NCBI RefSeq assembly: GCF_963921235.1
Contig: NC_086097.1
Coordinates: 109,122,001 to 109,186,000, forward strand
Source of the DNA: Mobula hypostoma
Taxonomy: Eukaryota
Reading direction: 5' to 3'
DNA length: 64,000 nucleotides
Part shown: positions 9,319 to 52,520 of the stretch, piece by piece
Layout: the number at the start of each line of letters is the position of its first letter
How positions within the stretch are numbered: position 1 is the first letter of the stretch
Made by a program: the position numbers and the translations under genes
The notes under the pieces: model-generated
The model's database searches: none
What the model saw: only the letters and a program-made list of their open reading frames with translations
What the model was told of the DNA's origin: nothing

Positions 9319-9452
9319 GTAAGACTCTCAAGTTCAGTGGTGTTTTTGTACGGCAGAGGGGTCATCCAACAAGTTATGGGCTAATTACAGTGTATGGAGC
9401 AGCTTCTTCAAGGTCTAAAATATTGCCAATAATTTATAACATAACTTAGTCT

Positions 9453-29126: not shown

Positions 29127-30896
29127 TTATGGGGAGCAAGGACATGGCAGACCAATTGAATAATTACTTTGGTTCTGTCTTCACTAAGGAGGACATAAAT
29201 AATCTTCCAGAAATAGTAAGGGACAGAGGGTCCAGTGAGATGGAGGAACTGAGCGAAATACATGTTAGTAGGGAAGTGGTGTTAGGTAAATTGAAGGGAT
29301 TGAAGGCAGATAAATCCCCAGGGCCAGATGGTCTGCATCCCAGAGTGCTTAAGGAAGTGGCCCAAGAAATAGTGGATGCATTAGTGATAATTTTTCAAAA
29401 CTCGTTAGATTCTGGACTAGTTCCTGAGGATTGGAGGGTGGCTAATGTAACCCCACTTTTTAAAAAAGGAGGGAGAGAGAAACCGGGGAATTATAGGCCG
29501 GTTAGCCTAACGTCGGTGGTGGGGAAACTGCTGGAGTCAGTTATCAAGGATGTGATAACAGCACATTTGGAAAGCGGTGAAATGATCGGACAAAGTCAGC
29601 ATGGATTTGTGAAAGGAAAATCATGTCTGACGAATCTAATAGAATTTTTTGAGGATGTAACTAGTAGAGTGGATAGGGGAGAACCAGTGGATGTGGTATA
29701 TTTGGATTTTCAAAAGGCTTTTGACAAGGTCCCACATAGGAGATTAGTGTGCAAACTTAAAGCACACGGTATTGGGGGTAAGGTATTGGTGTGGGTGGAG
29801 AATTGGTTAGCAGACAGGAAGCAAAGAGTGGGAATAAACGGGACCTTTTCAGAATGGCAGGCGGTGACTAGTGGGGTACCGCAAGGCTCAGTGCTGGGAC
29901 CCCAGTTGTTTACAATATATATTAATGACTTGGATGAGGGAATTAAATGCAGCATCTCCAAGTTTGCGGATGACACGAAGCTGGGTGGCAGTGTTAGCAG
30001 TGAGGAGGATGCTAAGAGGATGCAGGGTGACTTGGATAGGTTGGGTGAGTGGGCAAACTCATGGCAGATGCAATTTAATGTGGATAAATGTGAAGTTATC
30101 CACTTTGGTGGCAAAAATAGGAAAACAGATTATTATCTGAATGGTGGCCGATTAGGAAAAGGGGAGGTGCAACGAGACCTGGGTGTCATTATACACCAGT
30201 CATTGAAAGTGGGCATGCAGGTACAGCAGGCGGTGAAAAAGGCGAACGGTATGCTGGCATTTATAGCGAGAGGATTCGAGTACAGGAGCAGGGAGGTACT
30301 ACTGCAGTTGTACAAGGCCTTGGTGAGACCACACCTGGAGTATTGTGTGCAGTTTTGGTCCCCTAATCTGAGGAAAGACATCTTTGCCATAGAGGGAGTA
30401 CAAAGAAGGTTCACCAGATTGATTCCTGGGATGGCAGGTCTTTCATATGAAGAAAGACTGGATGAACTGGGCTTGTACTCGTTGGAATTTAGAAGATTGA
30501 GGGGGGATCTGATTGAAACGTATAAGATCCTAAAGGGATTGGACAGGCTAGATGCAGGAAGATTGTTCCCGATGTTGGGGAGGTCTAGAACGAGGGGTCA
30601 CAGTTTGAGGATAGAGGGGAAGCCTTTTAGGACCGAGGTTAGGAAAAACTTCTTCACACAGAGAGTGGTGAATCTGTGGAATTCTCTGCCACAGCAAACT
30701 GTTGAGGCCAGTTCATTAGCTATGTTTAAAAGGAAGTTAGATATGGCCCTTGTGGCTACAGGGGTCAGGGGGTATGGAGGGAAGGCTGGGTTCTGAGTTG
30801 GATGATCAGCCATGATCATAATAAATGGCGGTGCAGGCTCGAAGGGCCGAATGGCCTACTCCTGCACCTATTTTCTATGTTTCTATGTTTCTATGT
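29127..30896 (+). mobile_element. Young 5'-truncated CR1 LINE
   Basis: Unbroken ORF2 3' part, 3' UTR and (TTTCTATG)3 tail at about 30872-30896; the flanks rejoin as the older CR1 (ctctgta|ctctct). Confidence 0.95.
29129..30796 (+). CDS. CR1 ORF2 reverse transcriptase, 555-aa open frame lacking the APE endonuclease
   Basis: KSPGPDGLHP, NYRPVSLTSVVGK, YLDFQKAFDKVPH, GVPQGSVLGP, KFADDTKL, LVRPHLEYCVQFWSP, FFTQRVVNLWNSLP; no stops or frameshifts. Confidence 0.9.
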   Translation: MGSKDMADQLNNYFGSVFTKEDINNLPEIVRDRGSSEMEELSEIHVSREVVLGKLKGLKADKSPGPDGLHPRVLKEVAQEIVDALVIIFQNSLDSGLVPEDWRVANVTPLFKKGGREKPGNYRPVSLTSVVGKLLESVIKDVITAHLESGEMIGQSQHGFVKGKSCLTNLIEFFEDVTSRVDRGEPVDVVYLDFQKAFDKVPHRRLVCKLKAHGIGGKVLVWVENWLADRKQRVGINGTFSEWQAVTSGVPQGSVLGPQLFTIYINDLDEGIKCSISKFADDTKLGGSVSSEEDAKRMQGDLDRLGEWANSWQMQFNVDKCEVIHFGGKNRKTDYYLNGGRLGKGEVQRDLGVIIHQSLKVGMQVQQAVKKANGMLAFIARGFEYRSREVLLQLYKALVRPHLEYCVQFWSPNLRKDIFAIEGVQRRFTRLIPGMAGLSYEERLDELGLYSLEFRRLRGDLIETYKILKGLDRLDAGRLFPMLGRSRTRGHSLRIEGKPFRTEVRKNFFTQRVVNLWNSLPQQTVEASSLAMFKRKLDMALVATGVRGYGGKAGF

Positions 30897-33800
30897 ACTC
30901 TCTGAATTTTATTGACATCTTTCCTATAATTCGGTGACCAGAATTGTACACAATACTCCAAATTTGGCCTTACCAATGCCCTATACAATTTCAACATTAC
31001 ATCCCAACTCCTATACTCAATGCTCTGATTAATAAAAGCCAGCATACCAAACGCTTTCTTCACCACCCTATCCACATGAGATTCCACCTTCAGGGAACTA
31101 TGCACCATTATTCCTGGATCCCTCTGTTCTACAGCATTCTTCAATGCCCTACCATTTGCCATGTATGTCCTGTAGCCCCTACTCATCCCTTGATGACTGT
31201 GGTTCCACATCGCCACGGATTTCATCACAGGTTTGCCATCTTCCGATGATAACTGTGGTAGACCAGTTCTCCAAGGCGGCTCACTTCATTGCTTCCCCCA
31301 AACTTCCGTCAGCCATTGAGATGGTTCTCCAATATACAGTTTTCATCCACTGTTTCCCCCAGGCCATTGTGTTGGACCAGGGTCCACAATCTGTCACCCA
31401 CTTCTTATCCCTCCTCCACACCTCAGTGAGTTTATCCTCTGTCTATCATTTGCAGGCCAATGGTCAATCAGAAAGAGCCAATCAGCAAGTGGAGAAGTTT
31501 CTACGAGGCTTAAGTGCCTCTAGACTTCCCACATGGAAGACGTATCTGCTGTTGGCTGAGCTGTCCCATAATCTACACTCCTTCACTGTCACAGTTATGT
31601 CTGAGATCACAGGTATGCTACTTTGAAGTCCTTCATGGCTACCAATCCCCCTGTTGTTTCCCACAGAGGAGCTACAGTATTAGTGAAGGTCCCATCTGTC
31701 AGGGCCCTGGTTTGCCAGTGCCAGAATGCTTGGAAGAGGGCACAAAGGGTTATCCTAGATGCCAACCACGCCTACTGCCTCCAGTCTAACTGTCTTTGGT
31801 GCCCAGCCAGACTACTCCGGCCTAAGGATCATACCTGGCTGTCCACCCGAGACTTCCGCCCTTTTCATGGACCACTGAACCCACCTGCACCTGCACCTCC
31901 AAAAGCAAGGAAGGTGGAAGATGGTCCAGTGTACACGGTTTGCAGGTCGATGAATTCACGTCAGTGTGGATGAGGTGTGCAGTTTCTAGTCAACTAGGAT
32001 GGGTATGGCTTGGAGGAGAGGTCTTGGGTGTTGTCCTGTTTCATCTTTGATCCATCGCTAATCAGAGTTCCAGTGGACCCACCTGGATTGACCTGGGCCA
32101 TCAGGTACTGGCTGTAGGGGAGGAAGGGCACGCTGTCAGGCCTGAACAGGCAGGCACCTCCCAGCTAACAGGAATCTCCTGCCACTCATTTCCAAACCAT
32201 CACCTGCAGCCTATTTAAACCCAGCTCTCATCCACGTCTTGTTCACTCACATGAACCAGCCAGCCTCAATCAGTTGTTCCAAGCCTTCAGTTACCTTGTC
32301 ATTTTAAGCATCTGTTCTTTCCTGTTTTGTGGCCCTTTGTGGCTTGTTATTTTGCAGTTCATTAGTTAAAGGGTTGTTTACTGCTAAATCATCTCTGCTA
32401 CTCTGTTTTTGGGTCAAGCCTCCTCAGCATTTCCTAACAAGTGTGCTACTGTTTCCATCCAATCCCCTTTGCAGGAGCTTCATCTTAACTTTATCCTTTA
32501 ACAAACAGAAGGTAGTCCAATGTGTAACAGCATACGGGAGTATGACCATAAGCTGTGAAGCATGCAGAACTGTGGTGTTGTGGCAGAGGTCGCTGTGTAT
32601 TTGTTCTTCAGCGATCCACGCGTGCTGCTACATTTGACACACCAGCACAAACTCATCAAATGCTTGATAGCTCTGGCGTCCCACTTATGCCACATGCAGA
32701 AAATGAGAGCTCTGTTGCAGCTCAAGCTATGATCAAACTAATAGCATTCTTAGCAAACCAGGTTGCTCTGAAAGAGCCGTAGTTGGCAGTGGTATCCTGC
32801 GGCCCTTTGCAGAACTTTTCCATCATGAAGATATCACGATTGCACCATTTAAGATAAGTTTGTATAAGTATATGGATGGGAGGCGTATGTGTGTCAAGTC
32901 AATGGGACAACAGCTCACATAGACTAGATGGGCTGAAGGGCCTGCTTCTGTGTTGTAGTACTCTACAACTCTATGAGGTCAATCCAGTAATCAGCAAACA
33001 ATCAGGATGAGAACAAATATTAAACGGAAGAGAAAAGACGATCTAAAGAGCCTCCTTCCAACTAATGTGTAATTTCAAAAATATTAACCAACAACAATAT
33101 GTTCACACTAAATTGAACACATTTCCAAATTGCCTGTCTATATTCTAATTGCAGTGGCACCCAATGGTTGGTGAAGGTGACGGACATCAACATTGTTTGG
33201 AGGTAAACCAGCAGACAGCATAGCCTGTGTGGAAATGGTCTGATATGACATCTGTCAGGCGATAGCCAGAGTATTGTAGAATATGGGAGAGAATGTTGCC
33301 TCCCAGGGATTGTATCAATATTCCTAGTAATTTGTTGTAAGGTATACTGGGGGATATCTTCTTTACACACTCGTATCACAGCAGAGGAACTTCCTTGATA
33401 GTTCATCAAACAGAAACATAGGCTGTTTCTCTTTCCACAAATGTTTCCTGACATGCTGAATATTTCTAAATAAAAAAAAAGGCTTTCGAGCATCCGCAGT
33501 TTTTCTTTTGATATTCAAGTTTACTTGGCAGTAATTTGAGGATCTTTTGCTGCCTCTGGGCATTGGATAACTTTTTTATGGAAGGTGTGGTATAGGTGAT
33601 AAACTTGTATCTTACTTGGGACCATATGCGCACAATGGAATTTGCTTTCGTTTCCCTTCTGGAAAGAGTGCCTCAAAGCTATCACAAAGGTCAATGTGCC
33701 TACTTTAGTTTTTTTCTCATTGAACACAGGATTTCTGGAAGACATTCCACTGCCCCACACATTCCATTATGCATATCCATTACACTCTTCCTGAAGTCTG

Positions 33801-34639: not shown

Positions 34640-36968
34640 TGAATTGAATTGACTTTATTCTTACATCCTTCACATACATGAGTAAAAATCTTAACGTTAC
34701 ATCTCCATCTATGTGCAATCATAGTAATTTATAATAAAAAGTACAGTCAATGTAACACAGAAATACAGTTGTATCAGCATGAGTTAATCAATCTGATGGC
34801 CTGGTGGAAAAAGCTGTCCTGGAGCCTGTTGGTCCTGGCTTTTATGTTCCAGTACTGTTTCCTGGATGGTAGCAGCTGGAATAGATGGTGGTTGGGGTGA
34901 TTCAGGTCCCCAATGATCCTACGGGCCCTTTTCTCACACCTGTCTTTATAAATATCCTGAATCACGGGAAGTTCACAACTACAGATGTGCTGGGCTGTCC
35001 ACACCACTCACTGCAGAGTCCTGTGATTGAGGGAAATTCAGTTCCCATACCAGGCAGTGATGCAGCCAGTCAGGATGCTCTCAATTGTGCCCCTGTAGAA
35101 AATTCTTAGGATTTGGGGGCCCATACCAAACTTCCTCAACCGCCTGAGGTGAAAGAGGAGTTGTGCCTTTTTCACCACACAGCTGGTGTGTACAGATCAC
35201 GTGAAGTCCTCGGTGATGTGGATGCCCTCTCAACCCCAGCTCTATTGATGTCAATAGGGGTTAGCCCATCTCCATTCCTGCTGTAATCCACAACCAGCTC
35301 CTTTGTTTTTGTAACATTGAGGGAGAGGTTGTTTTCTTGACACCACTGTGTCAGTATAATGACTTCTTCCCTGTAGGCCACCTCATTATTGTTTGAGATA
35401 AGGCCAATCAAAGTAGTGTCGTCGGCAAATTTAATTAGCAGATTAGAGTTGTGGGTGGTGACACAGTCATGGGTATACAGGGAGTAAAGGAGGGGACTTA
35501 GTACACAGCCCTGAGGGGCTCCTGTGTTGACAGTCAGAGGGTTGGAGGTGAGGGAGCCCACTCTTACCACCTGCTGGCGACCTGACAGGAAGTCCAGGAT
35601 TCAGCTACACAAGGCAGGGTGAAGGCCGAGGTCTCTGAGCTTCTTGTCAAACCTGGATGGAATTACGGTGTTGAATGCTGAACTGTAGTCCATGAACAGC
35701 ATTCTCACATAAGCAACCTTCTTCTCCAGATGTGTAAGGATGGTGTGTAGAGCAGTGGCTGTTGCGTCATCTGTAGATCAGTTGTGTTGGTAGGAGAATT
35801 GTAGGGGGTCTAGTGTGGGTGGTAGCATGCTGCAGATGTAGTCCTTGACCAGCTTCTTAGTGTCATAAGGAGGTGGCTGGGAACGGACCCAAGTGCAAGA
35901 CACAGACACTGTAAGTACTAGGGACAGGACTAGGATACCAGGGTGAGAGCAAGGACATGGACACGAAAACCGGGAACCCAGAACAGGACTGGGCAAGTGA
36001 GCTAGGAGCCTGGGCTTGGACTCCGAGCCAGAGACTGGACAAGGACCCAGTAACTGGTCTTGCCTCTGGCTCGGACCCCAGAACTAGGCAAGGACGAAGC
36101 TTGGCAGGCAGGTAGGACGAGGCTGGAGTCTTCAGGCTTGAGGCTAGAGGCGAGGCTTGGCAGGAGGCTGGAGTCTTCAGGCTTGAGGTTAGAGGCTAGA
36201 GACGAAGCTTGGCAGGAGGCAGGAGGCAGGAGGCTGGAGTCTTCAGGCTTGAGGCTAGGCAGGATCCACCTGGGTAAGACGTGGGCAGGGCGCAGATCAC
36301 CACCCGACGGAGGCAAGGGACAGGAAGGGACAGAACCAACTGCAGGTAACGGCAAGATGGCCTGGCTTACCTGGGCGGAGGCAAGGGACAGGAAGGGAGC
36401 TAGGTACAGGGTGGCTCCAGGACAAGACTGCAGGTGAGATGAGGTGAGAGTTACCAGCAAGACCAGGCAAGGCTTCTGGCAAAGCAAGGCGAGACGAGAA
36501 CTTCAGGCAAGGTGAGAGTTACCGGCAAGACAAGGCAGGGCTTCAGGCATTGCAAGGCGAAACGAGAACTTCAGGTGAGGCGAGAGTTACCGGCAAGACA
36601 AGGCAGGGCTTCAGGTGAGGAAACAGAAGGCAGAGGAAGGGATACAAGGAGTAAGGACAAGAACAATCCAGCACCTGCGCCCTGGTCTTTGAAGGTATTT
36701 ATGCAGCCAGCCCCAACGAGCATCAGCTGACTCAATTAGAGCTCAACAAGAACAGAAACGGGGTAGACAGGAAAACCTGGAGCAAGGGTCAATGGACCGG
36801 ACCGTGAACTGGAATTTGGACTTCACAGACCGGACCATGACACTCAGAGCATTTGCTTATTATTGAGGTGAGTGTGATACGACACCAGTCGTTCAGACAT
36901 GTTACCTTGGTCTTTTTTGGTACAGGGACAATGTGGATAATTTGAAGTAGGAGGGCACTCTACACTGG
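34640..36968 (-). mobile_element. Rex1/Babar LINE split by a solo LTR
   Basis: ORFs 35172-35570(-) TGAPQGCVLSPLLYSLYTHD...KFADDT, 34774-35007(-) and LDPLQFSY at 35790; (GAATT)n tail at 34640; coding remnant resumes after 36847. Confidence 0.88.
35861..36842 (-). mobile_element. Solo LTR with internal tandem repeats
   Basis: TGTCAT...ATGACA termini; flanks cttag (35856-35860) and ctcag (36843-36847) form a 5-bp TSD with one mismatch; gaggctggagtcttcaggcttgagg x3 and gagagttacc(a/g)gcaagac x3 inside. Confidence 0.82.
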
Positions 36969-37278: not shown

Positions 37279-38264
37279 ATAAATTGCCTCTCTTAAAACA
37301 GGTGCAATTCAGGTTGAAGCAGTTCATAGTTGCTTTAACTGACGGTAGCCCCCTGTGAAAATGGCCATTGGCTTATTTGTCAGTTGAGCTCAATTAACAC
37401 TTTTATCCCCAGAGAAGGTTGTTGATTCCATTTCCAGTTCATAGGTCTAAATACAAGAATTAAGTGATGTGCTGCTGTAGTACTAAGAGAACATTGTCCC
37501 TGGGATAAGATATTAAATCCTCTGCCTCAGGTGAATATGAAGAAGAAATCCTCAGGCATTATTATGAAAAAGTACAAGGGTGTTTGCCGTGTAAACAAGA
37601 GGTCTAGAACTGGAGGGTGTGGTGTTATGGTAAAGGATGAAACATCAGAAAACAATACAGAGAAATTTCTTCTTTTGAAGGGTTGTGTCTCTGCAGAGCT
37701 CTTTGGATAGCTGATCCATTTAACATATTCAAAGAAGAGACAGAGCTTTGCACTATGAGGGAACCAAAACTCAGATGAGGAAGTACAAAAAGATCATCTC
37801 ACTATGATCAGACAGAAATTGTCAGCCTTGCGAGTCATTTAGCTTACAATATCTATTGTGTTCCTAGCAATGAAATATTCAAAATTCCCACCCATCCCAT
37901 GCATGACTTTGCTATGTCAAATTTCAGTCTTTATCTGATTTTTTTATTCATAAAAATGACTTGCCCTCAATAATAATTCATTGAGACCAATTTTCTTAAT
38001 ATGTTGCTCCCCCACAGAAAAGAATATTAGAGACTGATATATAGGAGAGTTATAGATGTAAAATAGAGAAAAACAACATAAATTCATTGGTAGGAAATGT
38101 ACTGTTAGAGTTAAAATGATATTTCTGTATGATATTTCAAATGAATTCATTATGCAGTGTGAATGAAAAACCCTCAAAATAGAACTCAGACTGAAGTTTT
38201 CCAGGACCTGCTGACAATGTGAAGTTCACCAATTTTCTAACAGCACTTTAATTTGTTTAATTAG

Positions 38265-38552
38265 ATGCTGAAGAAAAAGCAAAAAGAGAAGCTGTAGAAA
38301 AGGCTGAACAAGAGTCCAAGGAAGTTGCAAAGAATGAAAATACAGAGCAACATCATGTTAATAAAGAACAAAAAGCTGAACAAGAAAGGGGCAGTGATGA
38401 AGAAAAACGCGCAGAAGGTCATATTGCTAATATTAATCCTGTTCAGAACTCCAATAAAGACGCCAAGTCTAACGAGGAAGAAAGCCATTCTGAAACAGAG
38501 GAAAGTGCTGAAAAAGAAACTTCTGAAAGCAGAACACAGCCTATACAGAATT
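38265..38552 (+). CDS. PDE1C: PDE1C-like C-terminal charged/acidic exon
   Basis: ttaattag acceptor, gtaagt donor, 288 nt, open in the frame set by the previous exon. (D)AEEKAKREAVEKAEQESKEV...SESRTQPIQN echoes the PDE1C EEKAKKEAEEKA...QN exon. Confidence 0.85.
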
Positions 38553-39974
38553 GTAAGTCAATGCTTCATTACATTTACATGATAAATGTCTTTTTCACAG
38601 TATTTCTGACACTTCCTCTCTGTACCCATTTACCTTAGGGATACACAACACAGGAAAGTCATTCAACCAATAAACTTGATTCAAGTTTATTGCCACTTGC
38701 ATAAGTACAGAGAGGTATGGATACAGTGGAAACCATGGTTACAGCAGTATTACAGGCATCTAGATCCAGACAACATACAGTCACAGGACAGTATAATCAG
38801 GACAATGTTGCAGACTCAAAACATAGTCAGAGACAATCACATGATAATTTCAAGAGGAGGTTGATAGTGTTCTGTTGCTGATGTAAGATTAGGGCTGTGT
38901 GGATACCTGATGGCTGTATTCATTTCCAATCTGAAGCTGTATAGATGCACTTCAATTGACATACTCGACCTGATTTTTAATCTCAGATAGTGTGACCAGT
39001 CCTTATTAAAATCTTTCTTAATAACTTGCCTCAGGTATAGTGGAGATACGTTGGAAGTTCTACAGATCTGCAAATCATTTAAATAGTGCGGAGGTTTGCA
39101 CCCTGCAGAAAACAAAGGAGCTGAAATTGGCAGAATGGGCAGACACAGCAAATGAAATAAATGCATATTGTTAACATCTTGTCAGCCTCCTTTCTTCATG
39201 GGTTCATTACAACACATCTGAAATATTCAAAAGATATTTGATAACCGAAGGCATGGACTATATATTATTAATGTCTGGTGGAGATAACAGTTGCTTTTTT
39301 GGATTCTAATTCTGCCTTAAGTCCTGCGGTTGAAAACCTTGGCTTGTAGATTTAAAATGAAAGTTGAGTTTATTGTTAGTTACACAAGTCCATGTATGCA
39401 CAGGTGCAATGAAAAGCTTACTTACAGCAGCATCAGTGGCACGTAGCACCAGATAAGCAGCATTCCTAAGAAAAGAAGTATACATAAACTATATACACTT
39501 TTTATAAGTAAGAACACAATCAGAACAAAAGATGTTATATTGAATAAGGTGTGTTCATTTGGTGATATGCTTGAATGTACACTGATTCTTTAGCCCACAA
39601 GGACCAATATGATTAGATCTTGCACATTGTGAACTGAAAGGCCTTTATTGAACAAATGAATTTAGGGTCAAGCCACTGGGGGACTGTTAACGATGGGGCA
39701 ACAAGGATAGGATCAGCTTAGAGCTTGGTGGGGACGGAACACTATTGGTTTGGAGAAGTAACCTTGTGGCAGGGACCAGTGGCCATGGACGAAGGTCAGC
39801 CCAGTGGACAAGGAGGGGTACTGAACTTTCTGATTGGTTGTGTTCTGTGTTGTTCTACTGAGAATTGTAGGCATGCTGTATTAGTACTGGAATGTGTAGA
39901 CTGCCCCCAGCACATTCTTGGTTGGTTATTAATGTACACAATGCATTACATTATACATTTCAGTGTCAATAAAC

Positions 39975-40532
39975 ACATTTTAATTCCACATCCCATTCCC
40001 ATTCCGACATGTCTATCCACAGCCTCCTCTGCTGTAAAGATGAAACCACACTCAGGTTGGAGGAACAACACCTTATATTCCGTCTGGGTAGCCTCGAACC
40101 TGATGGCATGAACATCGACTTCTCTAACTTCCGCTAATGCCCCACCTCCCCCTCGTACCCCATCCGTTATTTATTTTTATACACACATTCTTTCTCTCAC
40201 TCTCCTTTTTCTCCCTCTGTCCCTCTGACTATACCCCTTGCCCATCCTCTGGGTTCCCCTCCCCCCTTTGTCTTTCTCCCTGGGCCTCCTATCCCATGAT
40301 TCTCTCATATCCCCTTTGCCAATCACCTGTCCAGGTCTTGGCTCCATCCCTCCCCCTCCTGTCTTCTCCTATCATTTTGGATCTCCCCCTCCCCCTCGCA
40401 CCTTCAAATCTCTTACCAACTTTTCCTTCAGTTAGTCCTGATGAAGGGTCTCGGCCTGAAACGTCGACTGTACCTCTTCCTAGAGATGCTGCCTGGCCCG
40501 CTGCGTTCACCAGCAACTTTGATGTGTGTTGC
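39975..40532 (+). mobile_element. Young Penelope-like element 3' part
   Basis: Open GIY-YIG C-terminus HFNSTSHSHSDMSIHSLLCCKDETTLRLEEQHLIFRLGSLEPDGMNIDFSNFR* ends at 40137, then a pyrimidine-rich UTR and hammerhead motif; atacatttcagtgt at 39953-39966 and 40533-40546 is a possible TSD. Confidence 0.87.
40433..40470 (+). ncRNA. Minimal type I hammerhead ribozyme motif (Penelope-associated), intact core
   Basis: UAGUC-CUGAUGA-A-GGGU(CUCG)GCCU-GAAA-C-GUC-GACUG. Stem I AGUC/GACU, conserved CUGANGA and GAAA boxes, stem II hairpin, loopless palindromic stem III (ACGU), GUC cleavage triplet at 40463-40465. Confidence 0.75.
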
Positions 40533-40802
40533 ATACATTTCAGTGTACATATATCTGTAGAAAGGAATGAACAGTCAATAATTCAGGTAACACTGTTCAT
40601 CAGGATTGAATCCTGATGAAGGGCCTCGACCTGAAACATCAAGTGTCCATTGCCCTCCATAGATGCAGATTAACACTCTGAGCATCTCCAGATCCTATTT
40701 GTTATAAGAGTAACCTGCTGTGAGTGTTAAGTGTGGAACTTGACCATTGTTCCCACCATCAGTTTCCATTGTCTTGAATCTGTAGCGGTATGTCTTCTTT
40801 AA

Positions 40803-41125
40803 AGCAACACATGCAAAATGCTGGAGGAACTCAGCAGGTCTGGCAGCATCTATGGAAGTGAACAAACAGTCAATGTTTCGGGCTGAGACCCTTCTTCAGG
40901 ACTGGAAAGGAAAGGGGAAGACATCAGAATAAAAAGGTGGAGGGAGAGGAAGGAGGATAGCTGGAGGGTGATAGGTGAAGCCAGGTGGGTAGTAAAGGTA
41001 AAGGGCTGGGGAAGGAGGAATCTGATAGGAAAGGAGAGTGGACTATAGAAGAAAGGAAGGAGGAGGGGACCCAGGGGTGGTGATAGGCAGGAGAGAAGAG
41101 GAAAGAGGCCAGAGTGGGGAACTGA
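40803..41125 (-). mobile_element. Penelope-like element 3' part with partly decayed hammerhead (40867-40904)
   Basis: Reverse strand reads cagtcctgaagaagggtctcagcccgaaacattgactg, then catagatgctgccagacctgctgagttcctccagcattttg. Confidence 0.78.
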
Positions 41126-42587
41126 AAAATTCTAGATTGGAATTCTCCAACCTTTGGTAACTCGCTCTTTCTGTATCAAAACTGGGCTTTTCTGCCAGCC
41201 ATCCATTTGGGAGGCTGGCTTAGTTTTCCTTTCTCCATTTATATAGGCTTACTTGATGGACATGCTCCTTAGCCCTGCCATCACCACTATATAACACAGA
41301 CAAAGGACATAATATGCTTCTCATTACCACATTAATTCATTTGGTCTCAGATTCAGATACACGTTTATCAAATGTACATGGACAGATGCAGTGAAATTTG
41401 TCATTTGCATTAACAAGCAACGTGCCTAAGGATGTGCTGGAGCAGTGGGCAAGAGTCGCCACATCTAGCATACCCACAATGCATCGCAGAACAACAGAAC
41501 ACAACAACATCAAAGTAAGTCCCTTACCTCCCGCTGTCCACCCACACTCACAGACAGTCCTCTAACTCCAGAACTTACTCTCAGACATAAGTATTTCTTT
41601 ATTCTACATATCCTCCCATACCTTCTTTTTGCAACAGAAACTCGATTTCAATGAAGGGTGTCGAACCAGAAATGTTAACTTGTTTTCTCCCACAGATGCG
41701 GTTTCACCATCTTACACTTAATTTCAGAACCTCCAACCTTTTTTTGATTCTCTTTCAAGTACTGTCAATGTGGGTCTCAGTTGTATATTGAGAGATATTT
41801 AATTTGATGGTGAGGGAAATGTGTGGTTTGATGACTTTTATTCAGATTAGCTGAAGGCTTGATTGGCTTTATTGATTCTGGAAGTGGGGATTTTGGATTC
41901 CTTCCCTAGCGATCTGTCAGTGGCGATGATAATTCCAGATATTTGCACCAGTTACACCTCCTCAGCTGTGTCATGACTGGAGGTGGCTTGCATGGCAATG
42001 TTAAAGTGAGGTCAGTTTGGATCTGGACTGCCGTGTTATTAACTCTGTTAAGGCCCATTTGACTTGCCTTAGAGGAGCTGGAATTGAGATTGATTGGATT
42101 GACTCTTAGGCTGAAAAGAGAGAATGACTAGAATGAACATACTTTTAATCTAATTAAAATCTGTTAGCACCACAGCTTTTTTGTTTCATGAACCTCAAGA
42201 TTGCTCACTATCCTTTCTCTTCTGGTTTCTTCGAGTTACTTGAAGATATCTGGTACTCCTCCACCTATCTGATGCTGTTTCTTCAATCTATATTGGAATC
42301 CATGTAGCTTTATTTGATGATCATTTTAGCATGATGCATCTCTTCATAACTGTTTTTCCTTTTTCAATAGCCACTTGTTTTTCAATTTCCTCTTTAATTT
42401 GCTTGCAAACAAGGTAGAGCTACCTTTGTATTGAACATAGAATCCTCAATGATACAGCACAGAAATAGACCTGTCGATTCACCACATCCATGCAACCCTG
42501 TTTGTTCATCTACAGCAATTGCATTTGCCCTTATCAGGACAGTATACTTCTGTGCCTTACCTGCTTAAGTGTCTAAAAGATAGTAAG

Positions 42588-43150
42588 TGCTTTGTCGAGC
42601 ACCTTGTTCCATTGGCCACAAGCAGAATTTCCCAGCGGCCTGATATTTTAATTCCAATTCCCACTCCTGTTCTGACATGTTGGTCCATGGTCTCCTCTTG
42701 TGTCAAGATGAGGTTACACTCAGGATGGAGGAGTAACCCATTACATTCCGTCTGGGTAGCCTTCAACTTATGGCATGAACATCGATTTCTCCTTCCGGTA
42801 AAAAAAATTCTCCCCCTCCATCCTCTATTCCCCAATCTAACCTTTCATCTCTTCCGATTATCTATCCCCCCCCCCCCGGTCCCCTTCTCCTGCCCTTTCT
42901 CCTATGGTCCACTCACCTCTCCTATCAGATTCCTTCTTCTTCAGCCCTTTATCTTTCCCGCTCACTTGGCTTCACCTATCACCTTCCAGCTATCCTCCTT
43001 CCCTTCCACCCACCTTTTTATTTTGGTGTCATCTCCCTTCCTTCTCAGTCCTGAAGAAGGGTCTTGGCCCGAAATATCGACTGTTTATTCATTTCCATAG
43101 ATGCTGCCTGACCTGCTGAGTACGTCCAGCATTTTGTGGGTGTTGTTTTG
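42588..43150 (+). mobile_element. Penelope-like element 3' part
   Basis: Frameshifted GIY-YIG C-terminus (FVEHL...FRLGSLQ), UTR and hammerhead motif at 43046-43083. Confidence 0.8.
43046..43083 (+). ncRNA. Minimal hammerhead ribozyme motif variant
   Basis: CAGUC-CUGAAGA-A-GGGU(CUUG)GCCC-GAAA-U-AUC-GACUG; perfect 5-bp stem I, palindromic AUAU stem III, AUC triplet. Confidence 0.6.
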
Positions 43151-43587
43151 TATCTGATCCCAGCTCTTCCTCTTACAGTGTGTTACAGATATCAATCATC
43201 TCTGTGCAAAAAAAACATATGCCTTAGACCCCTTTTATATCCCCTTGCTCTTACCTTAAACCTTTGGCCTCTAGTAAGGCATTTGTATGTTCTCCCCATG
43301 ACTGAATGGGTTTCCTCCCACATTCCAAAGACATACAGCTTAGAGCTAGTAAGTTGTGGGCACGTTATTTTGGTGCCAGAAACATGACAACACTTGTGGG
43401 CTGCCCCCAGTGCATCCACATATTGCTTTGGTCATTGATGCAAACCAAACATTTCAATGTAAGTATCGATGTACATTTGATATAATCTTTAATCCTTGGA
43501 GTTTCTCCAGTAATTTCCTATGCTGGCACAAGGCTCACAAGTTATCAAGCTTACCTATGTCCTTCTTAAATTAAAGAACAGTACTGC

Positions 43588-43690
43588 CTGTCCTGAAGAA
43601 GGATCTTGGCCTGAAAAGTCAACTGTTTATTCATTTCCATAGATGCTACTTGACCTGCTGAGTTCCTCCAGCATTTTGTTTGTGTTACTT
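43588..43690 (+). repeat. Short Penelope-like terminal fragment with decayed hammerhead
   Basis: gtcctgaagaaggatcttggcctgaaaagtcaactg...gacctgctgagttcctccagcattttg. Confidence 0.65.
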
Positions 43691-44349
43691 TGGCTGTCAC
43701 AGGAAGGATAAAATAGGATTAGACTTATGAATTTTCAATGAATACTCACTCGTCAGTACTCACTTGGGCCTATTTCTGTACACTATGACCCTATGAAAAC
43801 TTTGGCACTTCAATTTCTAGACACTGAGTAACTATGACATTTCATTTGCTCCACTAACCATGATCAACATTACTGGACTTTCCTCCGAAAGCAACTAGTG
43901 AGAGGGAGAGGAAGACAAGTCACACACAAGTAGATGGCGCCGAACATTCCCCCAATCCCCATCCTCCACTTTCGTACCCGTCAACTTCAAACTTGCTTGG
44001 CGCCTCAATCGGGGAAAACTAATAGAGTTGATCATGAGTTTTCTAAAAAAAAAACGGTATCATTTCTTTTTGCAAGTGATCTAATACCTAAGGAAAACCA
44101 CATGAGAGGTGGGGTTGGCTCGCCTTGCATCATACAGGGTATAATAATTAGGGTTAGTGAATTGGTATGCTAGTGATTGCTATCACACAGAAACCAGCAA
44201 TTTCACTGCCGGGGAAACCATGTACACTAAACTTCAGGACATGCACAAATATCAACTGAACGGCAGAGATTTTTCCTTACATTTTCCTTTGGATCACTTC
44301 CATGAGTAGAACAGAGGACAGAGGTCTTTAGTCTGCATTTCTACTATCA

Positions 44350-45585
44350 AAATCAGATTTAATATCACTGGCATATGTCATGAAATTTGTTGTTTTGCAG
44401 CAGCACTACACTGTAATACATAATAAAAAACTATAAATGACAATAAGAAATATATTTTAAAACATTAAATAGTGCAAAAAAAGAGAAAAGCAAGAAAAAA
44501 GTGAGATAGTGTACATGGGTTCAATGTCCTTTCAGAAATCTGATGGCCGAGGGGAAGAAGCTGTTCCTGAAATGTTGAGTGTGTCTCCAGGCTCCTGTAC
44601 CTCCTCTTTGATGATAACAATGGGAAGAAAGCATTACCCAAGTGCTGGCGGTCCTTAAAGATGGATGCTGCCTTCTGAAGATATCCTTGATGTTGGGAGG
44701 CTAGTGCCATGATGGAGCTGGCTGAGCTTGCAATTTTCTGCGGCCTTTTCTGATCCTCTGCGGTGGCCCCTCCGTCCTACACCAGACGGTGATGCAACCA
44801 GTTAAAATGCTTTTCATGATGCATCTGTAGAAATTTGAGTGTCTTTGGTGACATACCAAATCTCCTCAAACTCCTAATGAAATATAACCGCTGTTCTGCC
44901 TTCTTTGTAATCGCATCAATATGTTAGGCCCAGGATAGATCCTCAGAGATGTGGACACCCAGGAGCTTGAAAGTGCTCACCCTTGGCACTGCTCATCCCT
45001 TGATGAAGACTGGTTATGTGTTCTCTCGACTTCCCCTTCCTGAAGTCCACAATCAATTCCTTGGTCTTACTGACGTTGAGTGCAAGGTTGTTGTTGCAAT
45101 GCCATTCAACCAGCCAATCTATCTCGCTCCTATCACTTGCTCCTATCTCTATCACCACTCATCACCATCTGAAATTCTGCCAACAAAAGGCAAAAAGCAT
45201 GTGGACAACAGACTGAGTATCTGTTGTGTCATCATCAAATGTATTGATGGCATTTGAGCTGTGTCTAGCCAAACAGTTGTGGTTGTAGGGAGAGTAAAAT
45301 AGTGGGCTGAGCAAGCATTCTTGAGGTGCGCCAGAGCTGATTATCAGCGAGGAGGAGATGTTGTTTCCGATCTGCACTGACTGTGACTCTCCAGTCAAAG
45401 ATCCAGTTGCAGAAGGAGGTACAGAGGTTTTGAAGCTTGTTGATTAATACTGAGGGTATGATGGTGTTGAATGCTTAGCGGTAATCAGCAAACAGCAGCC
45501 TGACTTAATTATGGCTACCAGCCAGGTGATCCAAGGCCAAGTAAAGAGAGAGCCAGAGTGATTGTATCTGCTGTAGACCTATTAG
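44350..45585 (-). mobile_element. Rex1/Babar LINE, decayed
   Basis: ORFs 45162-45398, 44943-45158 and 44465-44710(-): SGAPQECLLSPLFYSPYNHN, WHCNNNLALNVSKTKELIVDFRK. Confidence 0.85.
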
Positions 45586-45914
45586 CTAAGCAAACTATTG
45601 AGCAAACTCTTCCCTTACAGTGCTGTGGAATGAGGACTGGATTCAAATCACATTCCACTTCAGTCCTTCTAGACTAAATGAAGGATCTCCACCTTTTTTC
45701 CTCCACAGATGCCTCATGACCCTTTGAGTTCCTCCAGCTCTTTTGTGTGTTGCCCCACATCCCAGCATTGGCAGTTCTTGTGTCTCCACTGTAGTCCTTT
45801 CCCAGGAAGGGTACAATTCTCATTTACCATAATAGGGAGCAGTTTTATAAGTCTTTGCCGGCAGGAAGAATCTGGACAGATCACTTTTCAGAAGGCTCAA
45901 GACCACAGGCAACT

Positions 45915-46840
45915 TAGAAACATAGCAACCCTACAGCACAATACAGGCCCTTCCACCCACAAAGCTGTGCCGAACATGTCCTTACCTTAGAAATTACCTA
46001 GGGTTACCCATAGCCCTCTATGTTTCTAAGCTCCATGTACCTATCCAGGAGTCTCTTAAAAGATCCTATCGTATCCTCCTCCACCACCGTCGCTGGCAGC
46101 CCATTCCACGCACTCACCACTCTCTGCATAAAAAAACTTACCCCTGACATCTCCTCTGTATCTACTTCCAAGTACCTTACAGCTATGCCCTCTCATGCTA
46201 GCCATTTCAGTCCTGTGAAACAGCCTTTGACTATCCACACAATCAATGCCTCTTGTCATCTTATACACCTCTATCAGGTCACCTCTCATCCTCTGTCACT
46301 CCAAGGAGAAAAGGCTGAGTTCACTCAACCTATTCTCATAAGGCATGCTCCCCAATCCAGGCAAAATCTCCTCTGCACACTTTCTATGGTTTCCATATCC
46401 TTTCTGTAGTGAGGCGACCAGAACTGAGCACAGTACTCCAAGTGGGGTCTGACCAGGATCTTGTATAGCGGCAACATTACCTCTCGGCTCCTAAACTCAA
46501 TCCCATGGTTGATGAAGGCCGATACACCGTATGCCTTCTTAACCACAGAGTCAACCCGTGCAGCGGCTTTGAGTGTCCTATGGACTTGGACCCCAAGATC
46601 CCTCTGGTCCTCCGCACTGCCAAGAGTCTAACCATTAATACTATATTCTGCCATCATATTTGACCTACCAAAATGAACTACCTCACACTTATCTGGGTTG
46701 AACTCCATCTGCCACTTCTCAGCCTAGTTTTGCGTCCTATCAATGTCTCACTGTAATCTCTGACAGCCCTCCACACTATCCACAACATTCCCAACCTTTG
46801 TGTCATCAGAAAATTTACTAACTCATCCCTCCACTTTCTT
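45915..46840 (-). mobile_element. CR1 LINE 3' fragment
   Basis: ORFs 46325-46546 and 46056-46289(-): LVRPHLEYCAQFWSPHYRKD, RGDLIEVYK. Confidence 0.88.
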
Positions 46841-47327
46841 GAGTGGAGTATCATAATTTAAATTTAGAATAAAATGTAGCAAAATGAGACTGCAGGCAGA
46901 GAACTGGTGCTATCCAAATTAAAATGAGCTGAGTACTTCTTTCTTTGTGTGAACAACAAATAAAGAAATACTCTACCTATCAACCACTGCTGAATAGTAA
47001 CAGAGGACAATATTGCACCTTGTGGAGGAAGAACTTAAAGCAATACAATCTCATATCTAAAATAAGTCAATCAAATCTGTTCAAGGAAACAAACATTGAA
47101 AATATTTTGAAGTAAATAAAGATTATGATGTTCTGTGGAGCAGTAATATGTTAACCAAACAACCACACTTCATTCCCAACCTGATACAGAATTCAGTTTC
47201 TTATTCATACTGTAATTCAACAGAAAAGATCTTGACTGACTGCTTGTTCTGAAAATCAGTGAGCCAACTTTCCTTCATTTTCTTGTCAGGCTGGAGATAC
47301 AAAATTTATCTGTACGTGTACAGCAGT

Positions 47328-47695
47328 AACTTGAATGTTGAAAGGTCTAGACAGAATGGATATGAAGAGGATGTTTCCTATAGTGCGGGAGTCTAGGACC
47401 AGAGGGCACAGTCTCAGAATAGAAGGATGTCCATTTAGAACAGAGATAAGGAAGAATTTATTTAGCCTGATGGTGGTGAATCTGTGGAATTCATTTCTAC
47501 AGACAGTTGTGGAGGCCAAGAAATATTTAAAGTGGAGCTTGATAACTTCTTCATTTGTCAGACCATCAAAGGTTACGGGGAGAAGACAGGAGAATGGGGT
47601 TGAGAGGGATCATAAATCAGCCATGATAGAATGGCAAAGCAGATTCGATAGGCTAAATGATGTAATGTTGCTCTTGTATCTTGCAGTTTTATGAT
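47328..47695 (+). mobile_element. CR1 LINE 3' fragment
   Basis: LKGLDRMDMKRMFPIVRESRTRGHSLRIEG...VVNLWNS. Confidence 0.85.
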
Positions 47696-48099
47696 CTATC
47701 TGTAAATGACCTTAAACTGCCAGTGAATCGCTCTAGCAGTCCTAGAAATTGAATGTCCACTTACATCAGGTACAGGATGCTTAAAGTCCAGAATTCTGAT
47801 TGAGCCACATGTCAGCTATGAAATTAAATCCCGCTGATTATCTCACATGTCATCGACAAGCAACTCGACAAGTTAGAGAGAAGTGTCCAACTCCAGATTA
47901 TTTATCAAATGAGATCACATTGCAGACCGTGCAATATAACTATATATTAATTTATCATTAAGTAACAGAGCAATTTAGTTTCAGAAGTAGAACACATCAT
48001 ATACCACCAATGAGCACAGCTACAAGGTGCACTGCCAAAAACAGGGAAAATTGTAAAGCATCAAAAGCTAAATATTCAATTTAGCAATTACATTCAAAA

Positions 48100-49768
48100 G
48101 CAGTTCAAAAGTATTCATCCCCCTTTGCTCAGTATTTAGTTGTACCACCTCTTGCAGCTGTTCTAACCAGTCATCTTTTTATTAGCTTTGCATAACATGA
48201 TGAATCAAGATTTGTCCATTCCTGGGATGGCAGGACTTTCATATGAAGAAAGACTGGATGAACTGGGATTAGAATTCCAATACTCGTTGGAACTTAGAAG
48301 ATTGAGGGGGGATCTGATTGAAACGTATAAAATCCTAAAGGGATTGGACAGGCTAGATGCAGGAAGATTGTTCCCGATGTTGGGGAAGTCCAGAACAAGG
48401 GGCCACAGTTTGAGGATAAAGGGGAAGCCTTTTAGGACCAAGATTAGGAAAAACTTCTTCACACAGAGAGTGGTGAATCTGTGGAATTCTCTGCCACAGG
48501 AAACAGTTGAGGCCAGTTCATTGGCTATATTTAAGAGGGAGTTAGATATGGCCCTTGTGGCTACGGGGATCAGGGGGTATGGAGGGAAGGCTGGGGCGGG
48601 GTTCTGAGTTGGATGATCGGCCATGATCATAATAAATGGCGGTGCAGGCTCGAAGGGCCAAATGGCCTACTCCTGCACCTATTTTCTATGTTTCTTGTAA
48701 AATTGCTCAAACTATGCCGGGTTAGTTGGGGAGTGGTGGTGGACAGCACTCTTACCAGAGATATTCGATCGGGTTAAGGTCAGGACTCTGGGCCACTGAA
48801 GGACATCGATTTTCTTCATTTGAAGCCACTCCATGGTTGCTCTGGCAGTGTGCTTTGGTCGTTGTCCTACTGAAAGACTAACTTCCTCCCTAGTTTAAGC
48901 TTTCTGGCAGAGGCTAGCAGGTTTTTATTCAGGAATTCTGTATTTATCAAGATTCATCTTTCCATGAATTTTGACCAGATTTTCAGGCCCTGCTGCTGAG
49001 AAGCATCCCCATAGCATGATGCTAACTCCACCATGCTTTTGAGGTAGGGGTAGTATTAACTGACGGAAGCGCAATATTAGATATGCACCACTTGTACCAC
49101 TTAGTGTTGAGGCCAAAAAGTTCCACTTTAGTGACATCTGACCACAACACCTTCTTTACAGTATTTTCTAAGTGACACTTTGCAAAGTCTTACAGGCTTT
49201 TTTTTTAAGTCAGCTTCTTCCTTGCCACTCTTACATAAATACCCTTATTGTGCAAGGCCTTAGAGATTGTGGAGCTGTGAATTTCATTTCCAGTTGCATC
49301 CACTGACTTCTACAGCTCACTCAGAGTGACTGTTGGCATCACAGTAGCCTGTCTTACAAATACCATTCTTCTCTGGCAGCTAAGTTTAGAGGGGGCAGCC
49401 TGACTTAAGCAATGTGGGTATAGTTTCATATTTTTTCCCACTTTTTCGTGATGGATTCCACTGAAGTCCAAGGTATGTTCAATACCTTTGAGATGGTCAT
49501 GTACCTTTCCTCAGATTTGTGCTTCTCTATTATCATTTCCCTGACTTGTTTTGAATGCTCTTTTGTCTTCATTTTGATTTGATCTGTTGAAAATCTACCA
49601 TACTGTTGGACCTTACACGGAGAGAGAGAGGATAGGGATGTATTCAGGTAATCCTCCAATTTTCTCCAACTTCTCCAATCCTCCAACTTCAATACATTTT
49701 TAAGTTAGAAAATGAAGCAGTAAAATATGGAAATGGGTTTGGGAGCTGAGTATTTTTTCAAGGCAATG
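48100..49768 (-). mobile_element. Tc1-family DNA transposon, decayed, interrupted by a CR1
   Basis: N-terminus MKTKEHSKQVREMIIEKHKS...ISKVLNIP (49426-49572); KHGGVSIMLWGCFSAAG (about 48990-49040); right end gagtattttttcaaggcaatg|TA is complementary to aaaagtattcatcccc at about 48107. Confidence 0.82.
48218..48694 (+). mobile_element. Young CR1 3' fragment of the same family as 29127-30896
   Basis: Near-identical to 30423-30880, including the 3' UTR and tttctatg tail. Confidence 0.92.
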
Positions 49769-50099
49769 TATACTTATCTTGATAATAAATTAACTTCGAA
49801 CTTTGATATAAGCTGTGTCAATCAGAGAAAAAGCAATATGCCGCAAGATTTTCAGAAAGTTTTAAGATGAACTCATGATTGCACTTCATCTTGTGTTATG
49901 AGGTAATTTGATTGTTATCGTACGGTCACCAATGGAAAGCTTTTTGACATTGCCTACGAAGGTTAATAAAGAATTATGCATACTTATTAAGGGAATAAAA
50001 GGGAAGTTCGTCATTGGGCGGAAAAGATCAATCATGTGACCATAACATAAACCCTGCTGGAAACATAACCAGTGTCCAGAGATACCCTATGAAACATGG

Positions 50100-50392
50100 C
50101 TTATTTATTTATTGATTGATCGATTGAGATACAGCACAGAATAGGCCCTTCCGGCCTTTCGATCCGCATAGCCTTGCAACCTCCAATTTAATCCTAGCCT
50201 ACTCACAGGACAATGTACAATGACCAATTAACCTACCAATGGGCATGTCTTTGGAATGTGGGAGGAAACTGGAGCACCTGGAGGAAACCCTCCTGATGTG
50301 GTCATGAGGAGAACATAGGCTGTGGCAGGAAATGAACCCGGGTTGCCAATACTGTAAAGGGTTGTGTTAACCAATAAGCTTCTATGCCGTCT
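50100..50392 (-). repeat. tRNA-derived SINE
   Basis: gtcttggaatgtgggaggaaactggagcacctggaggaaaccc...ggcaggaaatgaacccggg with a (TTTA)n/(TTGA)n tail. Confidence 0.7.
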
Positions 50393-51064
50393 CAGATTTA
50401 AATCTTGGTTATCAATTGTTTGTGATTATCAATGACAGTAGTTAGTTTCTAGTAAAAAAAGGCAAAATGCTGCTATTTGAAAGTTTGTTTCTTCCCTCCT
50501 ACGACTTGCCATTCCATAGGGTGGAGAGGCCTATCCTTTAATTGTTGATAATTTCAGAAAACTTGCAATCTATGTAGGCTTTACCATATTAAAATCGCAC
50601 CAATGATACAGAGATTTATATGACTATTAAGGGAATAATATGAACATTAAAGGAAAATTGGCCCATGCCCAAGAATTTCGATGGCTTCTTGCAAAACTAC
50701 TGAGCAACTACATTCAAAGATGGGCATTCCACCAAGTACACTCATTTTGGCAGTGTCAGCATACACTTCTTCAGAAGTGACCTGCCTTTTTATCACCATG
50801 TATGACTAACCCAGTGAAAAAGTATTCAAAGGCACTTACACAGAAACTTGTAAAATTTAGATCTAAGCCATTATAGAAACAGATCTTATACAACTGGACA
50901 GCTACAGTGTATAGGTAAGCAGGTAACTCCATTTGATGCTTAGCCACATTACGATCTTAGATCACAATATCATGTGAAGAACACAGGTCAAACATTCATG
51001 AAACTACCCACTATCATTTAATCTGGATTGTGAATCTCAAGCGCTCAGAAAAAAACAACTCTGT

Positions 51065-51480
51065 AGGAAAGAGTTATTAAACTGGAGAGAATCCATTAAT
51101 GATTTACGGGGAAGTTGTTCAGATTCATGGGACTATGTTATAGGGAGAAGCTGGACAGGCGAAGACATTTTTCTTTGGAATACGGGAAACAGAGAAGTGA
51201 TCTTATAGAGTTGTATAAGATCATGCAGAGTGAATATACTTATCGTTTCCCCAGGATTGTGGAATCACAAACCAGAGAACATGAGTTTAAGGTGAGGGGG
51301 GAAAAATTTTAACAGGAACCTGAGGGACAACCTTTTGTAACAGAGGGCATATGGAATTAACTACCAACATAAGGTTCTTGAGGCAGTTACAACAAAACCC
51401 TTGAAAAGACAATTGGACAGGTACAATGGATGTGAAATGTCCATGGGCTAAATAAGGCTAGCTTGGATAGGCAGCTTGAT
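51065..51480 (+). mobile_element. Old CR1 3' fragment
   Basis: GLCYREKLDR...RSDLIELYKIM...FKVRGEKF. Confidence 0.7.
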
Positions 51481-51739
51481 GACTGTAAAGCTTCAAATTG
51501 TCAAGCATTCACCATCATAGGAGTGGAAACCTGCCTCGTATCGAAATGATTTCGTAAGCATATTAAACAACAAGTAAAAAAGGAAAGGCTAAGAAATCAG
51601 AATTTATTTTTCCAGTTAAAGGATAGAATGTTATTATTGTGAATATCAATAAATTCCTAATTGTAAAAATTGTAATTTCTACATCTATATTTCTACATCG
51701 AAGTTACTTGTGCCTTTGCGCTGCTGAACATTCCACAAA

Positions 51740-51865
51740 CAGTCCTGATGAAGGGTCTCGGCCCAAAACATCGACTGTACTCTTTTCCACAGATACTGTC
51801 TGACCTGCTGAGCTCCTCCAGCATGTTGTGTGTGTGTTACTTGGATTTCCAGCACCTGCAGATTT
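51740..51865 (+). repeat. Short Penelope-like terminal fragment; hammerhead motif with GAAA changed to AAAA
   Basis: cagtcctgatgaagggtctcggcccaaaacatcgactg. Confidence 0.7.
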
Positions 51866-52112
51866 TTTTCATGTTTTTGGATTCCACAAACATGATGGAC
51901 AGCACTCTAGCATTTAACGGTCATAATTTCACAAAGTGATCTCTTGAGTGCTTTCAAAAATGACATGTTTATTGTAGTACTTCCCAATGTTTGCTCCCAT
52001 GTTAATATCTAAATATGCATATTGATCTCAGGAACATGGAAACATGGCTGCCTGGTTCTTACATCCTGCCACATGCTCCTAAATGCACATGGTTTTCTGC
52101 TATTCCATTCAC

Positions 52113-52520
52113 CGTCATCATTATGCGCTGTGTCGTATGACATCATCATTGTGTGCCATGTCATATGATGTCATTGTGTGCCATGTCATATGACATCATT
52201 ATGTGCCCTGTCATATGACGTGGATGATCATGGTCTTTGACCATGATTGTTCTTGGCAAATTTTTCTACAGAGGTCATTTGCTATTGCCTTCTTCTGGGC
52301 AGTGTCTTTACAAGACGAGTAATGTCAATACTCTTCAGAGACTGCCTGCCTGACGTCAGTGGTGGCACAACCAGGACGTGATATGCATCAGATGTTCCCG
52401 TGACTCCTGATTGGGAGGAGGGGGCTAAGCAGGCACTACTCGAGAGTGACCTGCAGGCTAGTGGAGTGAAGGAGCACCGTACATCTCCTTTGCTGGAGAT
52501 GCATTTCTACCCCGTCACAC
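52113..52520 (-). repeat. RTE-tailed SINE with tandemly expanded 3' tail
   Basis: Same family as 19410-19770; tcatt(a/g)tg(t/c)gc..tgtc(a/g)tatga x4 at 52117-52220. Confidence 0.7.

Follow-up and report, generated by a model that had tools for sequence, protein, structure and literature searches.

The window analysed here, a stretch of 64,000 nucleotides from Mobula hypostoma, carries part of a PDE1 gene on its + strand and, within one of the introns of this gene, a 5'-truncated Penelope-like retroelement with a hammerhead motif in its 3' terminal repeat (Table 1). Exons on the + strand that match the protein model P0006 start at positions 5812, 9234, 21012, 21893, 38264 and 53810, and agree with it at 97/97 and 40/40 residues in the two cleanest cases. 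P0006 is a PDE1 protein, carries a PDEase_I domain and is named 1A by NCBI. The intron that holds the element spans about 38555-53807, and the motif is sense to the host gene. Thus, the initial annotation, which had placed the motif in sense orientation to a PDE1C pre-mRNA, holds for the PDE1 gene, the strand and the intronic position, whereas the isoform differs from the NCBI name of the matching protein. The N-terminus of P0006 presumably resembles that of human PDE1C.

Table 1. Coordinates of the host exons, the element, its motif and related copies in the window.
Feature	Position	Strand	Basis or remark
Host PDE1 coding exon upstream of the element's intron	38264-38554	+	97/97 aa identical to P0006
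Next host PDE1 coding exon (models P0006 and P0018)	53810-53884	+	tblastn; sequence
Target-site duplication, left, 14 bp	39953-39966	+	exact repeat of 40533
5'-truncated Penelope-like retroelement, 566 nt, single 3' terminal repeat	39967-40532	+	14-bp duplication; empty site; loose ends before 39973
Last 54 codons with stop, RT/GIY-YIG ORF, C-terminal endonuclease part	39973-40137	+	homologs
Pyrimidine-rich 3' UTR / terminal repeat, holding CCUUCAG	40138-40432	+	sequence, folds; pyrimidine tract at end; CAG 40429-40431, TAG 40433-40435
Minimal type I hammerhead motif	40433-40470	+	sequence; descriptor; published consensus
Motif letters T; AGTC; CTGATGA; extra A	40433; 40434-40437; 40438-40444; 40445	+	sequence
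Motif letters GGGT; loop CTCG; GCCT	40446-40449; 40450-40453; 40454-40457	+	sequence
Motif letters GAAA; C; G; T; C (position 17); GACT; G	40458-40461; 40462; 40463; 40464; 40465; 40466-40469; 40470	+	sequence
Common 3' segment of the repeat, ending in TGTGTGTTGC	40471-40532	+	copy alignment
Target-site duplication, right, 14 bp	40533-40546	+	exact repeat of 39953; skipped-length match in X11 contig
Degenerate neighbour (40613 copy) lying 175 nt downstream, with preserved core boxes and damage in stems I and III	40608-40645	+	alignment, 6/10 stem I pairs with focal copy
Older-subfamily copy (43051 copy), palindrome AUAU, 2.6 kb downstream, same intron	43046-43083	+	only other sense copy passing descriptor
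Intact sister copy (58285 copy), 37/38 identical	58253-58290	- (antisense to host gene)	descriptor

Other features lie scattered over the window. An open reverse transcriptase frame of 567 aa at 29093-30796 (+; RVT_1, E 5e-34) is CR1-like by appearance, and fragments related to it are found at 48167-48666 and 62066-62725. Broken frames at 3357-4339 (-) resemble a Tc1/mariner transposase, and others at 26847-27953 and 31036-31970 (+) resemble Gypsy-type RT/RNase H and integrase, in both cases by appearance only, with no Pfam match on two of the latter. Short tandem arrays with periods of 7, 52 and 68 occupy 36086-36615.

The coding remnant of the element is short. Pfam gave no match on the 48-aa ORF end that precedes the stop codon at 40135-40137, and the first 6 nt of the element (39967 on) do not match the family. 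The ORF end does, however, match 5/9 of the longer proteins considered as candidates, whose names give Mobula hypostoma and Hypanus sabinus as sources. The best, P0001, shows 88% identity over 48 aa (E 6e-18); the matching part begins at 39973, and P0002 is identical at 44/54 residues and stops at the same residue. Among these homologs are found YIDD or YIDK motifs (YIDD in the reverse transcriptase of P0001), GIY-YIG domains scoring below the Pfam cutoff (in P0001 at 272-346, E 4.6e-4, 20.9 bits against a cutoff of 22.6) and, in P0001 and P0002, a C-x4-C-x2-C linker. The motif had been described as lying about 300 nt downstream of an open GIY-YIG C-terminus; the spacing is confirmed, the stop codon TAA standing 296 nt before AGUC, whereas the fragment does not include the GIY-YIG motif itself and owes its domain assignment to the homologs. 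Likewise, the CX2-5CxxC linker is read in the homologs and is absent from the window copy by truncation. According to the accessible part of PMC8557442, the Neptune and Nematis clades are recognised by a zinc-finger-like linker combined with an endonuclease at the C-terminus. The element is thus likely a member of Neptune, an assignment made from motifs in partial homologs, and the linker would also fit Nematis. A Hypanus protein named ATP synthase C3-like (P0003) ends in the same Penelope endonuclease C-terminus, as a gene model running into the family.

The history of the insertion can be followed at both of its ends. In run X11 (organism C), contig 9, of 422 nt, joins 39839-39953 to 40534-40827 unbroken; the 580 nt left out equal the 566-nt element and one copy of the duplication, and 27/422 letters differ from the window. 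This empty site, together with the 14-bp target duplication, shows that the locus received a 566-nt 3' fragment once its lineage had split from organism C, and makes the element a young, 5'-truncated insertion with a single terminal repeat. Two contigs of run X5 (organism B) differ from the window at 22 of 1808 letters, a contig of this run passes the left junction by 34 letters, and the insertion is probably older than the split from organism B. The focal copy is without a 3' extension of roughly 30 nt that is present on other copies, and loose contig ends of run X9 stand behind 40532 and before 40803. Such an optional 3' tail is described for Penelope-like elements in the available portions of PMC11167929 and PMC8557442.

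The motif itself, read directly at 40434-40469, is AGUC-CUGAUGAA-GGGU(CUCG)GCCU-GAAA-CGUC-GACU, which confirms the letters of the intact minimal hammerhead first proposed at 40433-40470. Both core boxes are present, CUGAUGA and GAAA, and the UH cleavage site is UC (40464-40465). Stem I is made of four Watson-Crick pairs closed by the wobble U40433-G40470, and stem II of the pairs G-U, G-C, G-C and U-G under the CUCG loop, with G10.1-U11.1 at its base. Between positions 9 and 10.1 stands one extra base, an A in 11/11 window copies. Positions 15.1-16.1 form the palindrome ACGU (40461-40464) without any loop; since the pair A15.1-U16.1 would enclose 2 nt, below the minimum of 3 nt, stem III cannot form in a monomer, just as had been claimed at the outset.

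How far such a motif could arise by chance depends on what is required of it. The two core boxes alone are weak and barely above chance, with 14 matches in the window against 6.67 +/- 2.93 in shuffles, one of 100 shuffles reaching that number. A strict descriptor that requires both boxes, stem II, complementary 15.2/16.2, UH and a stem I of at least 3 bp matches three times (40438+, 43051+ and 58285-) and not once in 300 block-wise dinucleotide shuffles. Other measures are silent. No Rfam model matched at the gathering threshold in the whole window, nor any hammerhead up to E = 10 in 39900-41000, a miss attributable to the limits of curated models, since the motif has no stem III. The 38-mer has an ordinary folding energy (z = -0.80), which does not by itself single the motif out. 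Covariation among the 11 window copies did not go beyond shuffles, with two cells of double change and 353/500 shuffles as high, and the fold therefore rests on its fit to a published class. A covariance model recovered its own 11 training copies and one weak match at 40572-40608 (E 9e-4), and thus provides no independent count. A search of metagenome contigs for the exact motif pattern gave 0 matches. The missing Rfam match, the ordinary energy and the lack of a covariation signal are what could be expected if the hammerhead likeness were a chance feature of the 3' end of the repeat. This explanation has a negligible probability, given the empty shuffles, the position in a terminal repeat, the agreement with the published consensus and the similarity between subfamilies, which starts at the first base of stem I. 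The descriptor, this consensus fit and the ORF homologs together support the identity proposed at the outset, and the motif is read as a minimal hammerhead of type I, set in the terminal repeat of a Penelope-like element of a ray-type family.

The relatives in the window, put at about a dozen by the initial annotation, amount to 12 strong copies in two nhmmer rounds, including the focal one, plus four to five degraded ones. The copy at 9449 is cut inside stem II, and the full 38-nt motif is present in 11 copies, of which seven are sense and four antisense to the gene, with therefore no sign of depletion. The motif is also found downstream of the ORF ends at 17293-17493, 42605-42766 and 55566-55712. 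The Penelope-like copy at 55566-56330 is broken by another repeat at 55712-55900 (+), just before its stop codon. Three more relatives lie less than 500 nt from the focal motif (40553-40645 and 40803-41121), namely degraded copies on both strands at 40608, and one in antisense at 40867-40904. The strict descriptor is passed by 3/11 full motifs; all 11 core bases are kept in 6/11, and G12 is lost in 3/11. The majority sequence of the 11 is a perfect minimal hammerhead with G10.1-C11.1 (the G-C pair itself occurring in 6/11), the palindrome and a cleavable GUC. In the copy at 43046-43083, AUAU stands for ACGU, a double change that keeps the palindrome and may be a compensatory variant or two hits of CpG-type decay. 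A further hairpin, GCUG...CAGC at 40497-40513 (+), keeps its arms in both subfamilies while its loop differs, and may be a protein-binding or reverse-transcription start signal.

The lesions in these copies are unevenly distributed. Across the 11 full motifs, with position 7 left out, differences fall in 31/88 cells at four CpGs (29 of them C>T or G>A) as opposed to 23/319 elsewhere (p = 5e-10), a pattern that suggests neutral decay of methylated DNA. The focal copy shares 32/38 letters of the motif with the majority of eight older copies, 73/195 in the upstream UTR, where low complexity makes the alignment poor, and 43/61 downstream. The sequence test proposed at the outset thus speaks partly in favour of the motif, which is better conserved than the poorly aligned upstream part, whereas the difference from the downstream part is not significant (p = 0.15). 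The edges of the motif stand out in another way: loose contig ends of three DNA-type runs pile up before 40434 and behind 40471, which indicates that the motif marks both the start and the end of what divergent copies have in common.

Read depth speaks for the very large genomic family that had been suspected. The summed contig depth of run X1 at 40457 is 14.3 million, compared with about 17-25 in most unique flank bins, a figure that reflects family size and not copy number. In the same run, at least 14 positions of the focal copy differ from more than 80% of the family depth, none of them in the motif among the positions listed. From a total of at least 14 private differences over the 566 nt, about one would be expected in the 38 nt of the motif, so that its intactness needs no selection. 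The base U11.1 is not private to the focal copy, C at 40457 making up 30%, 35%, 24% and 76% of the depth in runs X1, X5, X9 and X11, respectively.

The remaining question is what the motif does, for which the published class provides the frame. In the accessible text of Cervera and De la Pena 2014 (PMC4209133), monomers of such motifs do not cleave and dimers cleave at a low level; dimer cleavage is also covered by the review PMC6765202, which in the part available cites Lunse et al. 2016. In a designed double hammerhead (homodimer) of the ray motif, 4/4 stem III and 10/10 stem I pairs can be drawn. A nearest-neighbour model that leaves out the tertiary contacts of the core gives -11.5 kcal/mol for this homodimer, whereas two monomers reach -18.4 and the best cofold -26.7; these predicted energies do not support the dimer but would agree, weakly, with low activity. 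With at least 15 upstream nt, the predicted pairing probability of stems I and II is at most 0.02, and 6/8 copies folded in a 30/60-nt context stay at or below 0.01. The upstream CCUUCAG is predicted to pair with the core, at CUGAUGAAGG (40423-40447, +), and so to mask it; the same masking in the 58285 copy makes it a subfamily feature, and it possibly represents an off state.

Partners for the focal copy are few. The sole perfect one in the window is the 58285 copy, which is antisense, and no perfect sense partner exists there. A cis dimer with the neighbouring 40613 copy was rejected, as only 6/10 stem I pairs could form. The 43051 copy would pair at 10/10 positions of stem I and 3/4 of stem III and, the focal copy being intact, a low level of cleavage is conceivable from this modelled pairing. 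Activity of the focal copy in the host pre-mRNA is nevertheless unlikely. The broader proposal that it cuts the PDE1 pre-mRNA at C40465, with the 43051 copy as partner in cis or abundant family RNA in trans, and thereby alters host splicing or the choice of 3' end, could draw on the sense intronic position, on the intact cores of both copies, on family sequence being plentiful in run X9 (guessed to be RNA) and on the domesticated intronic hammerheads of amniotes described in the available sections of PMC6155905. We regard it as very unlikely, because the insertion is young and missing in organism C, its intactness is expected from its age, its stems are predicted to be masked in context, its sister copies decay at CpG, including G12, and the amniote examples are conserved across classes whereas the ray copy is not.

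A possible link to splicing comes from the gene models. The NCBI model P0018 (XP_062910808.1) of the host PDE1 gene takes its last 23 residues from 56224-56292 (+), in a sister copy that serves as an alternative last exon. Its acceptor is the AG of the stem I 5' strand (56223-56224), preceded by a pyrimidine tract, and the exon end AAAG is joined to UCCUGAUGA at the 56227 copy, regenerating AGUC. The same pyrimidine tract and AG precede 40436 in the focal copy. For Penelope of Drosophila virilis, the available portion of PMC4209133 reports an intron that ends where helix I starts on its 5' side. It could be imagined that this 3' splice site turns the sense copies of ray introns into ready alternative last exons and gates a dimer ribozyme, present in very many copies, that trims host transcripts once the masking tract has been swapped for an exon end able to rebuild stem I, a chain of events that we consider highly improbable. 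Against such gating, the 56227 copy has G for U16.1, P0018 is a prediction, and stem II did not recover when the upstream sequence was left out of the fold (0.18 and 0.0). A weak search for longer proteins with a frame starting at the stem I acceptor found none (one candidate, none scored), and the contig of run X9 over the upstream exon ends at 38553, which is uninformative on splicing into 40436. If the acceptor link were true, rays would have in this repeat a supply of alternative last exons across the whole genome.

The pyrimidine tract and AG before stem I, present in several copies and used as an acceptor at 56223-56224 by P0018, also bear on the proposal that the active element keeps the motif mainly as a protein-binding, folding or splice signal, without cleavage in vivo, the focal copy being equally a leftover. 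This is unlikely, even though the accessible parts of PMC11167929 report that insertion of the anole element in vitro is unaffected by hammerhead mutants and that no RNA-seq reads end at the cut site, and even though the low dimer cleavage in the founding paper (PMC4209133, as far as available) leaves room for functions other than cleavage. It is opposed by the majority of the 11 copies, in which the core bases are complete and both the palindrome and a cleavable GUC are retained, and by the anole motif itself, which, according to the same parts of PMC11167929, cleaves with protein in a manner dependent on C3 and G8.

The locus is thus very probably explained by a minimal hammerhead that belongs to the 3' terminal repeat of a Penelope-like element, truncated at its 5' end and likely of the Neptune clade, in a PDE1 intron; cleavage is predicted for the dimer only, and the motif is likely inert where it now lies. 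To judge from the published class, tandem copies of the parent element would place two motifs on one RNA, where the two ACGU palindromes would pair as a shared 4-bp stem III while stem I would form crosswise. Each core would then cut the partner strand 3' of C17, probably with the help of the element's own protein. The focal copy is likely silent, being a lone motif with no perfect sense partner in the window, with competing hairpins predicted in its context and with sister copies that lose core bases through ordinary CpG decay. For the field, a ray family of unusual size is added to the published class, and little else. The dated insertion with its empty site nevertheless offers a clean test case for two questions, whether cleavage by the minimal hammerheads of Penelope-like elements takes place in vivo, and whether the host pays any price for very many sense copies in its introns.

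The literature searched on Penelope/Neptune, hammerheads, sharks, skates and elasmobranchs yielded, by listing, no description of the ray family, and supplementary lists may hold chondrichthyan motifs. No shark, skate or chimaera is named in the accessible part of supplement file 2 of PMC4209133, and a term search of a shark and ray genome-size preprint gave no mention of Penelope. The closest counterpart is the class of Cervera and De la Pena 2014, whose motifs, in the accessible sections, have no helix III, hold a single base between 9 and 10.1, are palindromic at 15.2/16.2 and sit in terminal repeats. The ray motif shares with it CUGANGA plus the extra base, a stem II led by G10.1, GAAA, the loopless palindromic 15.2/16.2, UH and a short stem I, as well as the U-rich upstream sequence and the location in the 3' repeat of a 5'-truncated element. 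A Neptune row from the coral Acropora in the same source agrees with the ray motif in its stem II of 4 bp, in having a tetraloop and in C-G-U-C. The ray motif differs in its host, in a stem II of 4 bp that is at the short end of the range, and in position 11.1, where the focal copy, like much of the young subfamily, has U. Judged by sequence, all features of the published class are present except G10.1-C11.1, in place of which the focal copy has G-U, a pair that is also seen in published rows such as Xenopus (1) and cichlids. An effect of G10.1-U11.1 on the cleavage rate was not found in the literature searched.

The Neptune-clade elements, as described in the available text of PMC8557442, resemble the closest full homologs in the C-terminal GIY-YIG, the CX2-5CxxC linker and CCHH-type residues, and resemble the ray family in carrying a hammerhead in the terminal repeat and an optional tail of 30-40 nt. 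In contrast, the focal copy holds only the last 54 codons and no tail, and Nematis has the same linker. Poseidon of Anolis carolinensis, following the accessible part of PMC11167929, also has a terminal-repeat hammerhead and short and long 3' ends. It belongs to another clade, and its cleavage has been shown experimentally, whereas the ray motif is known from sequence; the anole cleavage requires the element protein and is dispensable for insertion in vitro.

More distant parallels are offered by hammerheads outside this setting. A preprint (10.64898/2026.07.22.740005, seen in part) describes hammerhead retrozymes in one chondrichthyan and Neptune and Poseidon in five vertebrate classes; of the frog retrozyme dimers, 1/9 cleaved. 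These non-LTR retrozymes contain type I hammerheads akin to those of Penelope-like terminal repeats, but are non-coding tandem arrays, in contrast to the solitary ray copy with its ORF remnant. A retrozyme array was accordingly rejected for this locus, which has no tandem array and does have an ORF remnant. A domesticated intronic hammerhead of the RECK type was rejected as well, given that the insertion is young and that its site is empty in organism C, a relative with about 6% divergence. The amniote RECK and CTCL hammerheads, in the sections of PMC6155905 available, share with the ray motif the type I architecture and the position in a host intron, but they resemble canonical type I motifs and are conserved across amniote lineages, whereas the ray copy is young and has no stem III loop.
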